From an uncultured Chloroflexia bacterium (lineage in GTDB: Bacteria > Chloroflexota > Chloroflexia > QHBQ01 > JADMIH01): a stretch of 64,000 nt of DNA. The stretch spans positions 768,001-832,000 of the forward strand of contig CAWCNY010000006.1 in the NCBI GenBank assembly GCA_963797095.1. The letters run 5' to 3'. Below are positions 23,441-54,852 of this stretch, in pieces. Below the pieces are notes generated by a model. The model made no database searches. It was not told where the DNA came from and was given only the letters and a program-made list of their open reading frames with translations. Positions within the stretch are counted from its first letter, which is position 1. Each line of letters begins with the position of its first letter. A program made the translations under genes and the position numbers.

Positions 23441-24382
<942 letters not shown>

Positions 24383-24440
24383 TATAATGGCCCTGGAAAA
24401 CTGGACCACGAAACGGCGAAAGCTCCTCTGAAAATAAGAG

Positions 24441-25685
24441 TTAGGCCACTTGTTGAACCTGTTGAATAGGCACAAGCTGCACCTGGTATCCAAGGCTCTC
24501 CAAGCGACGGACTGCCCGCTTCTCTACCATCTGCCGTTCTCGCTCATCAAAGTAGTTGCCTCCCAACTCCTGGTATGATACCCGACGCAAAAGCACATGA
24601 TACACAATCACCAAGATAGAATGAGCTACCGCTACCATCGCTCTCTTGCTCCCTCTTCTACGCACCAACCGCCCGTATTGAGCCGCCAGGTATGTGCCTT
24701 TGGTACGCACTGCCCCATGTGCTGCCTCTATCAGCACCGCCTTGAGCCACGGACTTCCCTTGCGCGTCTTCCCACTCAACCGTTTACCCCCGCTCTGGTT
24801 GTTGCCCGGACACATGCCCGCCCAAGAAGCCAGGTGGTGCGCAGACGCAAATCGGGTCATGTCCACTCCTATCTCCGCTACCAGCACTTGAGCCGCTCGC
24901 TCCGAGATGCCCGGCACACTGTCCAACATTTCCAACTGCCCCTCCTCAACGAAAGGGCGCGCGCTCTCCTCAATCTCGGTGCTCACTCTCTCTATGGACG
25001 CATCAAGATAGTCAATGTGTCCAAGGTGCTCGGCTATCATGAAGCGGTGGTATCCGCGCACTCTACCGGAAAGAGCCGCCACCAACGCTTCGTGCTTCTC
25101 CCTCAGCCGTCCCTGGGCGAGATCGGCCAAGATATTGGCATCAGTCTGCCCATCAACCAGCGCACCCAACATGGCTCTGGCCGATACACCCATAATATCG
25201 GTGGCAACTCCTGCCAGCTTGATGTTGGCATCCTCCAGTATCTTCTGCAACCGATTGATGGTATTCGCTTTCTCCCTCACCAGCGTAGTGCGGAAGCGGG
25301 TCAACTCCCGCAGGTCACGTTGTGCGGCATCTGGGATGAAGCTCCCTCGGAGCAACCCGTGCCGAAGCAGATCGGCTATCCACTCCGAGTCCTTGACATC
25401 GGTCTTACGACCAGGCACTGCCTTGATATGCTGGGCGTTGACCACCAACAACTCGAACTGCTCGTAGCCTTCCAACAGGTTGTAGATTGGCTTCCAGTAA
25501 ACGCCGGTGGACTCCATCGCCACATGGGTGCACCCAACTTGCGCCAGCCAATCAGCCATGTGCAATATGTCGGCGGTCATGGTACTGAAGGTACGTACCG
25601 CCTTACCAGAGGGAGTGAGCAAACAAGCCACTATCGTCTTCTTGTGTACATCAAGACCACAGCATCGCTCGTAAATCGCGTTCAT
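24441..25685 (-). CDS. IS110-family DEDD recombinase/transposase
   Basis: GLDVHK, MESTG and KTDVKD (DEDD); NQSGGK serine motif; AAGGAGGT RBS before ATG 25685. Confidence 0.95.
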   Translation of the reverse strand: MNAIYERCCGLDVHKKTIVACLLTPSGKAVRTFSTMTADILHMADWLAQVGCTHVAMESTGVYWKPIYNLLEGYEQFELLVVNAQHIKAVPGRKTDVKDSEWIADLLRHGLLRGSFIPDAAQRDLRELTRFRTTLVREKANTINRLQKILEDANIKLAGVATDIMGVSARAMLGALVDGQTDANILADLAQGRLREKHEALVAALSGRVRGYHRFMIAEHLGHIDYLDASIERVSTEIEESARPFVEEGQLEMLDSVPGISERAAQVLVAEIGVDMTRFASAHHLASWAGMCPGNNQSGGKRLSGKTRKGSPWLKAVLIEAAHGAVRTKGTYLAAQYGRLVRRRGSKRAMVAVAHSILVIVYHVLLRRVSYQELGGNYFDERERQMVEKRAVRRLESLGYQVQLVPIQQVQQVA

Positions 25686-25710
25686 GGACCACCTTACCTC
25701 CTTGCTTGTA

Positions 25711-25750
25711 ATCTGATCCGATCTGATCCGATCTGATCCGATCTGATCCG
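25711..25750. repeat. (ATCTGATCCG)x4 inside the IS110 leader; seven GATC sites
   Basis: Directly visible; also present at 54507-54546. Confidence 0.95.
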
Positions 25751-25757
25751 CGTAACG

Positions 25758-25978
25758 CTTTACAGTCAGTGCGAAGAGGTCAGCCAACAGGGTGCCCACT
25801 ATGCAAAGAATCTCCTCTACGTGCTTCCCAAGAGAGACCCCAGTACAAGGATCCCCAGAATGGGAGCGACAGACAATGGTGCCTGGGGACACCCAGGTCA
25901 TACTTAGGTACAGGCTCGTGGCACCAGACTTCGCCCGACCTTTAGCGTTGGCTGCCTCTCGCAGACTGCAGACTAAAG
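25758..25978 (-). ncRNA. putative bridge/seek guide RNA of IS110 copy 1
   Basis: TATACT -10-like box at 25977-25982 (minus strand). Long-range stem AGAGGCAGCCAAC/GTTGGCTGACCTCT; internal hairpins; internal matches to both junctions at 25809-25818 and 25901-25909. Confidence 0.65.
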
Positions 25979-26044
25979 TATAACCATTTTCATTCGCTAT
26001 GGTGGCCCGTAGGGTCATGATTACTTAGGTGAGATAGAACGGCT

Positions 26045-27304
26045 ATGACGACCATGAAAAAGCTCAACGGATTGCGCAACAACTATTCGCCGGAATACAA
26101 GGCTAACATTGTGCGGGAAATCCTGCGTGAGGAGAAGAGCGTCGCACAAATAGCTGCCGAACACGGCATCCACCCCCATCAGCTCTACCAGTGGCGAGAC
26201 ATCGCTTTGCAGGGATTGCCCACCCTTTTCTCAGGCCAATCAGCCAAAGAGCAGGCAGAGCGGGAAGCTGCCCACGCGCAGAAGGTATATGAATTGTATG
26301 CCCAGATAGGCATGTATGCCCAGATAGGCAAGCTAACCACCCAGTTGGAGTGGCTGGGAAAAAAAGCTGGAAGAATCGATGAATAAAGAGGAGCGTGTGG
26401 CGTTGCTGGAGCGGGAGCCCGTGGTCACCAGTGTGGCGGGGCTGTCCATTCGTGCGCAAACTCAGCTTCTGGGGTTGAACCGCTCCTCCTTGTACTACCG
26501 AAGTGTGCCGCCCTCGCCGTAGGAACTTTGGCTCAAGAGGCGCATAGACGAAATCTACACCGCTCACCCCTTCCCCTTCTATGGCTCCCGGCGTATCGCT
26601 GTCCAGTTGCACAACGAAGGACATTCGGTCAACCGCAAGACGGTGGCCCTCCATATGAGGGAGATGGGTCTGGTGGGGATAGCTCCCGGCCCCTCCACGA
26701 GCATGGGTAGCAAGCGAGCAGCTGATTCGAAATATCCCTATCTGCTGAGAGGAGTGGTTGCCGACTACCCAAATCACGTCTGGGGGGTAGACATCACCTA
26801 CATAAGAATGGTAGGCGGCCCACAGGCTTATCCGGGGTGGCTGTACCTGGTGGCGGTGTTGGACTGGCACTCGTGGACTGGCACTCGCGCTACATAGTCA
26901 GTTGGGAACTGAGCCAGAACATGGGGCAAGGCTTTGTCATGGACGCTGCGCGAGCAGCCCTTGCCAAAGCGACGCCTTTCATCTGGAACTCTGACCAGGG
27001 AAGCCAGTTCACCTCCCCTCAGTACACCGCCCTGCTGGAGGGGGCGGGAGTGCAAATCAGCATGGATGGCAGAGGCCGGTTCGTGGACAACATCTTCACC
27101 GAGCGGCTTTGGCGAACGAATAAATACGAAGAAGTCTACTTGCATGAGTATTGCAGTCCTAAACAGGCCAGGCACAGCCTGAGCGAGTACATCCACTTCT
27201 ACAACAACGAGCGGCCCCACCAGGCCCTGGACTATCAGACGCCGGCGGCAGTGTACCACTTGCACCGGCTAGCTACCCCACAAGAAGGAGGCAATCTCAC
27301 CTAA
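26045..27304 (+). pseudogene. IS3-family OrfA/OrfB transposase, OrfB disrupted
   Basis: OrfA HTH at 26045-26386 and an A7G frameshift motif near 26359-26366. OrfB motifs WGVDITY, NSDQGSQFTS, DNIFTERLW and YNNERPHQAL. In-frame TAG at 26520 and a 14-bp duplication at 26860-26887. Confidence 0.9.
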
Positions 27305-53136: not shown

Positions 53137-53236
53137 TGAATTCGCCCCTTACTGCCCCAATCATGCCTCAAGAGCAAGTCCCATTGAGCCTGTCAAAACC
53201 GCAGGCAACGCTGCCAATCTCCTCTGAAAATAAGAG

Positions 53237-54481
53237 TTAGGCCACTTGTTGAACCTGTTGAATAGGCACAAGCTGCACCTGGTATCCAAGGCTCTCCAAG
53301 CGACGGACTGCCCGCTTCTCTACCATCTGCCGTTCTCGCTCATCAAAGTAGTTGCCTCCCAACTCCTGGTATGATACCCGACGCAAAAGCACATGATACA
53401 CAATCACCAAGATAGAATGAGCTACCGCTACCATCGCTCTCTTGCTCCCTCTTCTACGCACCAACCGCCCGTATTGAGCCGCCAGGTATGTGCCTTTGGT
53501 ACGCACTGCCCCATGTGCTGCCTCTATCAGCACCGCCTTGAGCCACGGACTTCCCTTGCGCGTCTTCCCACTCAACCGTTTACCCCCGCTCTGGTTGTTG
53601 CCCGGACACATGCCCGCCCAAGAAGCCAGGTGGTGCGCAGACGCAAATCGGGTCATGTCCACTCCTATCTCCGCTACCAGCACTTGAGCCGCTCGCTCCG
53701 AGATGCCCGGCACACTGTCCAACATTTCCAACTGCCCCTCCTCAACGAAAGGGCGCGCGCTCTCCTCAATCTCGGTGCTCACTCTCTCTATGGACGCATC
53801 AAGATAGTCAATGTGTCCAAGGTGCTCGGCTATCATGAAGCGGTGGTATCCGCGCACTCTACCGGAAAGAGCCGCCACCAACGCTTCGTGCTTCTCCCTC
53901 AGCCGTCCCTGGGCGAGATCGGCCAAGATATTGGCATCAGTCTGCCCATCAACCAGCGCACCCAACATGGCTCTGGCCGATACACCCATAATATCGGTGG
54001 CAACTCCTGCCAGCTTGATGTTGGCATCCTCCAGTATCTTCTGCAACCGATTGATGGTATTCGCTTTCTCCCTCACCAGCGTAGTGCGGAAGCGGGTCAA
54101 CTCCCGCAGGTCACGTTGTGCGGCATCTGGGATGAAGCTCCCTCGGAGCAACCCGTGCCGAAGCAGATCGGCTATCCACTCCGAGTCCTTGACATCGGTC
54201 TTACGACCAGGCACTGCCTTGATATGCTGGGCGTTGACCACCAACAACTCGAACTGCTCGTAGCCTTCCAACAGGTTGTAGATTGGCTTCCAGTAAACGC
54301 CGGTGGACTCCATCGCCACATGGGTGCACCCAACTTGCGCCAGCCAATCAGCCATGTGCAATATGTCGGCGGTCATGGTACTGAAGGTACGTACCGCCTT
54401 ACCAGAGGGAGTGAGCAAACAAGCCACTATCGTCTTCTTGTGTACATCAAGACCACAGCATCGCTCGTAAATCGCGTTCAT
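53237..54481 (-). CDS. IS110-family DEDD recombinase/transposase
   Basis: Same protein as 24441..25685. Confidence 0.95.
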   Translation of the reverse strand: MNAIYERCCGLDVHKKTIVACLLTPSGKAVRTFSTMTADILHMADWLAQVGCTHVAMESTGVYWKPIYNLLEGYEQFELLVVNAQHIKAVPGRKTDVKDSEWIADLLRHGLLRGSFIPDAAQRDLRELTRFRTTLVREKANTINRLQKILEDANIKLAGVATDIMGVSARAMLGALVDGQTDANILADLAQGRLREKHEALVAALSGRVRGYHRFMIAEHLGHIDYLDASIERVSTEIEESARPFVEEGQLEMLDSVPGISERAAQVLVAEIGVDMTRFASAHHLASWAGMCPGNNQSGGKRLSGKTRKGSPWLKAVLIEAAHGAVRTKGTYLAAQYGRLVRRRGSKRAMVAVAHSILVIVYHVLLRRVSYQELGGNYFDERERQMVEKRAVRRLESLGYQVQLVPIQQVQQVA

Positions 54482-54553
54482 GGACCACCTTACCTCCTTG
54501 CTTGTAATCTGATCCGATCTGATCCGATCTGATCCGATCTGATCCGCGTAACG

Positions 54554-54774
54554 CTTTACAGTCAGTGCGAAGAGGTCAGCCAACAGGGTGCCCACTATGC
54601 AAAGAATCTCCTCTACGTGCTTCCCAAGAGAGACCCCAGTACAAGGATCCCCAGAATGGGAGCGACAGACAATGGTGCCTGGGGACACCCAGGTCATACT
54701 TAGGTACAGGCTCGTGGCACCAGACTTCGCCCGACCTTTAGCGTTGGCTGCCTCTCGCAGACTGCAGACTAAAG
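54554..54774 (-). ncRNA. putative bridge/seek guide RNA of IS110 copy 2
   Basis: Same sequence as 25758-25978. Confidence 0.65.
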
Positions 54775-54852
54775 TATAACCATTTTCATTCGCTATGGTG
54801 GCCCGTAGGGTCATGATTACTTAGGGGAAGAATTAGCCGGTGTCAACGAAAT

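Follow-up and report, generated by a model that had tools for sequence, protein, structure and literature searches.

Bridge RNAs have been known since 2024, and the existence of one more in an insertion sequence of the IS110 family would be ordinary in itself. According to the texts of the reports on IS621, the target loop of its bridge RNA is made up of a stem, a first guide (LTG), a stem-loop and a second guide (RTG); LTG pairs with the bottom strand through the core, and RTG, starting at the core, pairs outward along the top strand and runs on into two handshake bases that match the donor (Durrant 2024; Hiraizumi 2024). The IS621 core is CT, with a T described as almost invariant (Hiraizumi 2024), and inverted repeats of 2-3 bp are reported for elements of this type (Durrant 2024). 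In the seekRNAs of the IS1111 elements ISEc11, ISPa11 and ISKpn4, the top-strand match is placed 5' of the bottom-strand match, and the text of the same report puts the non-coding region and RNA of IS1111 elements downstream of the gene and gives their transposases 330-350 aa and the motif GL-P----S/TG (Siddiquee 2024). The seekRNA of ISEc21, an element of IS110 type, is described with the bottom-strand match first and targets a site within IS3-family elements (Siddiquee 2024). The text of a 2026 preprint lists 86 covariance models for 32,190 bridge RNAs, many of them unlike that of IS621 in shape, and the subfamily treated here may well be among those models.

We analysed a window of 64,000 nucleotides from an uncultured Chloroflexia bacterium (GenBank assembly GCA_963797095.1, contig CAWCNY010000006.1, positions 768,001 to 832,000), which holds two copies of an IS110-family element. 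A sequence-only reading of this stretch had proposed that the long non-coding end of the element encodes a guide RNA. The evidence presented below supports that proposal, and we put the probability at about 0.85 that the leader (25686-26023, minus strand) is the gene of a bridge RNA that serves a DEDD/serine recombinase and has loops that read target and donor. We regard this as a known kind of system in a modest variant. The anatomy of the element, its boundaries, its core and the covariation of three guides and of the stems are direct observations on the sequences, and together they provide a worked example from raw sequence for a distant IS110 branch in which all target-reading positions are legible.

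Boundaries, core and recombinase gene of the element

The sequence-only reading had described two apparently identical copies, at 24423-26025 and 53219-54821, and comparison of the two confirmed identity over 24423-26029 and 53219-54825. Within the shared block 24420-26029 the sole mismatch is at 24422, and identity stops at 26030. The genome (6.0 Mb, 8 contigs) contains these two full copies, one 140-nt right-end fragment and several paralogues at 64-69% DNA identity. The positions of all features are collected in Table 1.

Table 1. Features of the IS110-family element, in positions of the window; assignments to the RNA and its guides are predictions.
Feature	Position	Strand	Remarks
IS110-family element, copy 1	24423..26025	-	1601 bp plus a second copy of the CT core; bounded by both copies, the right-end fragment and contigs
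CT cores of copy 1	24423-24424 and 26024-26025		
Right-end tip	24425..24435	-	AGAGG read by the putative donor guide (element sense, 24425-24429) beside ATTTTCA (24429-24435)
Recombinase gene, 414 aa	24441..25685	-	Pfam and NCBIfam profile matches
Ribosome-binding site AAGGAGGT	25696-25703	-	precedes the recombinase ATG at 25685
Tandem repeat, 4 x 10 nt, perfect	25711..25750	-	between RNA body and ribosome-binding site
Putative bridge RNA body	25775..25960	-	outer stem 25947-25960 with 25775-25788; from the fold and kept in relatives
Putative donor-binding module	25790..25894	-	stem H (25887-25894 with 25790-25797), J2, upper stem (25866-25871 with 25820-25824) with variable hairpin, 3' strand with segment 2
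Segment 2 (AGAGG-AG-AUU), candidate 3'-side donor guide	25809..25818	-	same sense as right-end tip and core, then 3 bases weakly matching the right flank
J2, 5' strand of loop 2, CCAGGCACCAUUGUC	25872..25886	-	same-sense near-copy of left-end positions +18 to +26
Putative target-binding module	25896..25940	-	S1 (25937-25940 with 25896-25899), 5' guide, P2 (25921-25926 with 25911-25915), 3' guide
Segment 1 (ACCUA-AG-UA), candidate 3'-side target guide	25901..25909	-	same sense as left flank and core, then 2-nt handshake guide
Candidate 5'-side target guide GGCGAAGUCU	25926..25935	-	antisense to core and right flank; ends in CU
Left-end tip region	25986..26023	-	four parts, listed below from the tip inward
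Left-end tip TAATCATG	26016-26023	-	
Imperfect palindrome, left end	26003-26019	-	
Left-end segment CCACCATAG	25997-26005	-	positions +18 to +26
Left subterminal repeat ATGAAAAT	25986-25993	-	inverse of right-end ATTTTCA
IS110-family element, copy 2	53219-54821		every copy-1 feature recurs at +28796

In gene orientation, the left junctions read (A/C)CCTA-AG-TAATCATG, and the three right junctions share CAGAGG-AG and continue with CTT, ATT or TTA. A metagenome contig fuses 24421 to 26024 with one T between them, which yields AAT-CT-TAGG on the plus strand with a single CT; as its shorter side is only 26 letters long at 90% likeness, this contig supports the assignment of an empty site and falls short of proof. 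A variant of the element at 97.5%, with an alignment that spans 24423-26031, sits between other flanks in a second metagenome contig. The left and right junctions, together with the single-CT contig, indicate that the core is AG in gene sense, that is CT on the plus strand, and the sequence-only reading had arrived at the same core. It had also offered another possibility, that the core is the CT at 24426-24427 and that the two junction-like segments of the leader form one split target guide, for which a string match in this one element is all that speaks. The three right junctions share ...GAGGAG and only then diverge, the third of them included, the empty-site contig holds one CT between AAT and TAGG, and in relatives the second segment tracks the right-end tip of its own element, not the flank. 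The right junctions, the covariation columns described below and the empty-site contig thus refute the alternative core, which we consider practically untenable. Among unoccupied sites in the element's own genome, no 16-mer matched the target with one substitution or fewer, and six did so with two.

With the AG/CT core excluded, the right end lies 16 nt past the stop codon of the recombinase gene, and the leader extends for 338 nt upstream of the gene. Both ends carry one member of a 7-bp subterminal inverted pair, ATTTTCA and TGAAAAT, which is conserved among relatives and unequally spaced, at 6 nt from the right tip versus 30 nt from the left tip.

The recombinase matches the Pfam profiles DEDD_Tnp_IS110 (PF01548; 2.2e-36) and Transposase_20 (PF02371; 1.1e-21) as well as the NCBIfam profile NF033542, 'IS110 family RNA-guided transposase' (2.5e-87; score 293 bits, cut-off 140), and it distantly matches the transposases of IS621 (E 2.6e-13) and ISCro4 (E 5.4e-11). 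In the alignment its GLD, MESTG, KTDVKD and QSG pair with GID, IEATG, KTDTVD and ESG of IS621. These matches point to a protein that combines a DEDD RuvC-like domain with a Tnp domain bearing the catalytic serine.

On the minus strand, a 525-aa frame (24441-26018) starts at the left-end tip, spans the entire leader uninterrupted and continues into the recombinase gene, as would be expected if the leader were coding and the recombinase were extended at its N terminus from 26018. However, relatives align from residue 1 of the 414-aa form, the ATG of which is preceded by a ribosome-binding site, and related metagenome contigs are short by 10 or 5 bases at the tandem repeat 25711-25750, deletions that break the frame. 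Because of the alignment of relatives and these deletions we judge the leader part of the frame to be non-coding, and an N-terminally extended recombinase to be extremely unlikely. At the place of the tandem repeat, a paralogue (L003:3015-3410) has a (GAACGC)n array of unrelated sequence.

Signals of transcription were less distinct. The TATACT box to which the sequence-only reading had drawn attention is indeed there, in element sense at 25977-25982; its role as a promoter found less backing, in that a consensus sigma-70 promoter scan of 25600-26100 returned no promoter and, of 41 relatives, only 20 have a TAnnnT box after the conserved ATGAAA, which is not decisive. An RNA run (X20) yielded a single 263-nt contig, which maps to 24993-25249 only, inside the recombinase gene. 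The sole match in an Rfam scan of 24300-26200, with E values up to 10, was an unrelated viral pseudoknot at chance level (E 7.6).

Predicted fold of the leader RNA

A search of species-representative genomes identified 562 relatives, of which the best 80 (51-65% protein identity) were used; by their record titles they come from Chloroflexota, Bacillota, Acidobacteriota and other phyla. From these best 80 of 562, 51 distinct leaders were drawn into an alignment termed A2. Rows in which motif anchoring failed or was misplaced (17 of 86, counting the loci together with the elements of the genome itself) were left out of A2, as were near-duplicates and a paralogue bearing a long hairpin insertion. 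Since the relatives share kinship, the permutation p-values given below overstate independence. Pairwise walking gave no boundaries for L018/L019, L050/L051, L074/L075, L079/L080, L047/L052, L043/L049 and L044/L057/L045, the flanks of which are shared or the copies too diverged.

The long-range stem that had been picked out from the sequence alone is contained in the minimum-energy fold of the leader (-130.6 kcal/mol, z -3.03, with 1 of 100 shuffles as good), and relatives retain a helix that closes the structure: with cognate flanks the longest helix has a mean length of 8.5 bp, and with non-cognate flanks 5.5 bp (0 of 2000 permutations). Within this one closing stem, RNAalifold and pair counts on A2 resolve two modules, each composed of a stem and an internal loop. 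In module 1, an internal loop separates stem S1 from hairpin P2. S1 is 97% paired, with changes on both sides at 3 of its 4 pairs, and P2 is 100% paired, with such changes at 3 of 5 pairs. Module 2 consists of stem H and a near-invariant upper stem with a variable hairpin on top; H shows both-side changes at 8 of 8 pairs and is 73% paired in a fixed register, and the upper stem is 99% paired and nearly invariant. Segments 1 and 2 both lie on the 3' sides of their internal loops. These features argue for a structured RNA with two internal loops in the long non-coding end. Two earlier candidates for pairing were dropped: a hairpin CGGGC/GCCUG, since RNAalifold and pair counts favour UGG(U)GC/GCCYG, and a pseudoknot UGGUGCC/GGCACCA, which is broken by eye in relatives L018 and L022 and is likewise disfavoured against UGG(U)GC/GCCYG.

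Candidate guide segments in the two loops

Segment 1, TACTTAGGT at 25901-25909, is an exact copy of the junction at 26022-26030, and segment 2, AATCTCCTCT at 25809-25818, is an exact copy of the junction at 53216-53225. As the sequence-only reading had pointed out, both copies include bases from outside the element. That reading had assigned segment 1 to the left flank and core and segment 2 to the right-end tip and core, and had named guide-target covariation in homologues as a check; such covariation was found for segment 1, for segment 2 and for the 5' target guide, and it bears out both assignments at the level of single alignment columns.

In loop 1, segment 1 provides a 9-mer in which five flank bases precede the core and two donor bases follow it. 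Among 44 distinct relatives, 40 have a 9-mer that differs from the left junction of the same element by no more than one base, compared with 23 of 1700 mismatched pairings, and the other four relatives show 2-3 mismatches. The core of the junction lies 37-82 nt from the aligned start of the RNA in 39 of 40 elements and 126 nt away in one. A column scan found identity to left-flank positions -5 to -1, to the second core base and to donor positions +1 and +2 (columns 72-81; z 4.2-9.7, n = 40). The first two bases after the core match the donor, at the start of the left end, in 39/40 and 38/40 relatives, and the third shows no donor match (8/40).

The sequence-only reading had seen no clear antisense right-hand guide, yet the 5' side of loop 1 does hold a guide antisense to the core and right flank. 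Of its 10 positions, 8 are Watson-Crick paired with the flank of copy 1, one makes a G-U pair and one is mismatched; with the flank of the empty-site contig 9/10 positions match and one is G-U. Its pairing with copy 2 is confined to the core and the three flank positions next to it (4 Watson-Crick, 1 G-U), and it pairs with the right-end fragment at the core, through one G-U at flank position 2, and at two distal positions. Copy 2 therefore looks like a site that fits mainly one guide, to which a 2026 preprint on half-match recombination may be relevant. Across the family, complementarity of the cognate pairs is 5.27 versus 4.35 in a fixed register and 6.41 versus 4.97 when the best of three registers is taken (0/2000 permutations), and many relatives have 7-9 contiguous pairs. 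A fixed-register column scan for any antisense guide gave none at z >= 3.5, and the signal of this guide emerged only on anchoring at the hairpin with a shift of 1 allowed; pairing with the second core base is inconsistent in elements with an AC or AA core. Taken together, these results are consistent with a loop 1 that pairs with both target strands and overlaps at the core.

In loop 2, segment 2 follows the right end of the element. The right end of relatives has the form TTTTC + 5 nt + core (A-N), and the 7-mer at its tip is identical to segment 2 in 39 of 51 rows of A2, with one mismatch in seven, two in one and no usable end in four. Over columns 186-190, identity to positions -5 to -1 of the right-end tip reaches 91-98% among 43 elements (z 4.9-10.4). 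The bases of segment 2 after the core match the right flank more often than expected (44 matches vs 33.8, p 0.002), and the loop 2 handshake is weak when taken base by base (18/43 and 17/43, where 14.0 and 11.6 would be expected). Handshake matches to the non-cognate partner thus appear in both loops, strongly in loop 1 and weakly in loop 2. The core is the same in both segments in 51/51 rows, with AG in 43, AC in 4 and AA in 4, which corresponds to N-T on the other strand. Moreover, four paralogues of the same genome have different strings at the same places of the leader, each of which fits its own left junction and right-end tip.

Judged by this covariation, the junction copies are not due to chance. 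They could still be relics of nested insertions or end duplications that have no RNA function, with the protein alone picking the site, and it is true that many relatives adjoin right-end-like sequences and that tandem arrays of relatives occur. Relics, however, would keep neither fixed places in a conserved fold, nor a covariation with the flanks that extends to 40/44 relatives, nor cores in step in every one of 51 rows, so that we regard this origin as very unlikely and retain guide segments of a bridge RNA as the preferred reading.

The sequence-only reading had further concluded that the guides present are left-hand ones only, one for the target and one for the donor, around an AG core, that a new type of cross-pairing comes with them, and that the layout departs from IS621. 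In gene orientation both segments do have left-half sense (left flank and core; right-end tip and core), and no core-adjacent guide was found for the left-end tip. Against this, each segment occupies the 3' side of its loop and closes with AG and handshake bases, as RTG and RDG of IS621 do, and a 5'-side guide that ends in CU and is antisense to the other flank exists. Because the RNA has the IS621 form (a 5' guide ending in CU; a 3' guide ending in AG and two bases), the supposed cross-pairing is the known handshake, described in the text of Hiraizumi 2024, and the supposed departure corresponds at the RNA level to the published RTG+HSG and RDG+HSG (Hiraizumi 2024). The same order of guides is also given in the text on IS1111 seekRNAs (Siddiquee 2024). 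A layout of left-hand guides alone with a new cross-pairing is distinctly unlikely, and the bridge RNA reading can be spelled out instead as follows.

In that reading, by analogy with IS621, the RNA would be made, bound by the recombinase and direct strand exchange. The closing stem would hold two adjacent internal-loop stem-loops. The 5' strand of loop 1 (GGCGAAGU-CU) would pair with the gene-sense strand of the core and right flank and the 3' strand (ACCUA-AG) with the other strand of the left flank and core, the UA that follows serving as handshake guide for the incoming left-end tip. The 3' strand of loop 2 (AGAGG-AG) would pair with the right-end tip and core, and the 5' strand carries the copy of the left-end stretch that lies 18-26 nt from the tip. 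On the plus strand, the preferred target would be close to GGCGAAAT-CT-TAGGT, and recombination of this target with the joined ends of an excised circle at their shared CT would lead to insertion with no duplication beyond the core.

Of the two donor halves, the right-end half is seen in loop 2, and the match to the left end lies instead 18-26 nt inside, where it covaries. This left-end segment directly follows the imperfect palindrome and directly precedes the conserved ATGAAAAT. The J2 10-mer fits it with at most two mismatches in 14 of 41 elements, compared with 60 of 1318 mismatched pairs. When five variable positions were anchored independently on ATGAAA, 102 of 170 bases were identical versus 58.6 ± 5.4 expected (0/5000 permutations; 34 elements, 7 of the 41 being left out for a missing anchor or as duplicate rows). 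J2 showed no complementarity to the core and left-end tip in five registers (p 0.19-0.96) and no match to the reverse complement of the left-end tip (5.29 vs 5.34), and a core-adjacent donor guide for the left-end side was not found in loop 2. The left-end side of the donor is seemingly not read beside the core. The distal match of J2, which may represent either a DNA guide away from the core or something at the level of the RNA, is the sole feature that does not fit the IS621 complex.

It is possible, if doubtful, that the donor is read unlike that of IS621 in this subfamily of ~410-aa recombinases. Both strands of the donor loop would then pair with the CT-bearing strand, one at the right-end tip and core and the other 18-26 nt inside the left end, past a conserved palindrome, each site beside a 7-bp subterminal repeat, and this would be combined with an upstream RNA gene of IS1111-type polarity. 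If true, a folded donor (a hairpin or U-turn) or a reaction biased towards one strand would be implied; in IS621, the CT-bearing strand is the first to be cut. Should the distal match be a real guide, donor recognition in this branch would differ from the solved IS621 complex, which would matter for the engineering of orthologues.

Comparison with described elements and observations on flanking sequences

The element shares with IS621 a recombinase made of a DEDD domain and a serine-bearing Tnp domain, an RNA in the long left end upstream of the gene, and two stem-loops with internal loops, the first for the target and the second for the donor. In both, CU terminates the 5' guide, a 2-nt handshake guide comes after the AG at the end of the 3' guide, and the core is N-T with a fixed T. 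The recombinase is distant from that of IS621 (E 2.6e-13) and larger, with 414 aa as against the 328-aa PDB chain; an outer stem closes both modules here, and the subterminal inverted repeats are 7 bp long. In gene orientation, an IS621-type layout would have left halves (bottom strand) in the 5' guides, right halves (top strand) in the 3' guides and CT on the sense strand, whereas here the order is reversed and the core on the sense strand is AG. What the 3' guides of IS621 read is the right flank and the left-end tip; here it is the left flank and the right-end tip. As the 5'-CT-3' strand is antisense to both the RNA and the recombinase gene, the site is turned round relative to IS621. IS621 also has a donor guide next to the core for the left-end tip, and none was found here. 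Two real differences from IS621 appear to remain on the evidence of covariation, namely the polarity of the site and the way in which the left-end half of the donor is read.

With the IS1111 seekRNAs, as described in the text, the element has in common the top-strand-first order of guides. The subterminal inverted repeats of IS1111 elements, 7-17 bp long, are possibly matched here by the 7-bp pair, which lies at unequal distances from the tips; the RNA is upstream of the gene here and downstream there; and the recombinase has 414 aa with GMCPGNNQSG, compared with 330-350 aa and GL-P----S/TG in the published description. With ISEc21 the element shares an upstream non-coding region and a link to IS3, and differs in the order of the target matches, which is top strand first here and bottom strand first in the text on ISEc21. 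Only 19 bp separate copy 1 from a downstream IS3-like orfA (HTH_Tnp_1) and the frame with an rve integrase core that comes after it (26045-27304), so that the preferred target would lie at the outer edge of another insertion sequence. The combination of an upstream RNA with IS1111-type polarity was not found stated in the running texts searched; no description of this layout came from 10.1101/2025.10.25.684509, 10.1101/2024.06.21.599552, 10.64898/2026.08.14.744561 and PMC13604230. An IS1111-like polarity of the site together with the gene order of IS110 bears on the relation of the two groups.

Several observations on the flanks of relatives were made along the way. TTTTC, with at least 4 of 5 bases matching, occurs at left-flank positions -10 to -6 in 19 of 40 distinct elements versus 3 of 39 in a control window; examples, 12-14 nt before the core, are L021, L023, L041, L047, L072 and L086. 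The end of a recombinase gene lies upstream of such a flank in only two cases, and copies 1 and 2 have ATCTC and TCTTC at this position. With a TTTTC in the left flank, the half-site of the target mimics the right end (TTTTC + 5 nt + core), which suggests a motif read by the protein and common to target and donor, and this would explain tandem arrays.

Different members of the family were found head to tail at C8:92251-95779 and C5:605867-609422 of genome G000 (L003, L007), where B2 starts 5 nt past the right end of B1. The upstream element on C5 has a donor guide, AGAGC-AG, that misfits its own right end, AGAGG-AG. Over the final ~260 nt this element is identical to B1, and it apparently represents a chimera or a duplicated block. 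In L030, from a Dehalococcoidia MAG, one element occurs twice in immediate head-to-tail succession upstream of the match. The joined ends of the two copies (right-end tip, AA core, left-end tip) equal the junction expected in a circle, and the same copy has a right flank with two extra bases (TA) relative to its sister copy. Finally, the right flanks of L026, L027, L028 and L067 carry CCATGG, TCATGG or CCATGC at slightly different offsets, similar to the CATG that family members have close to their left-end tips.
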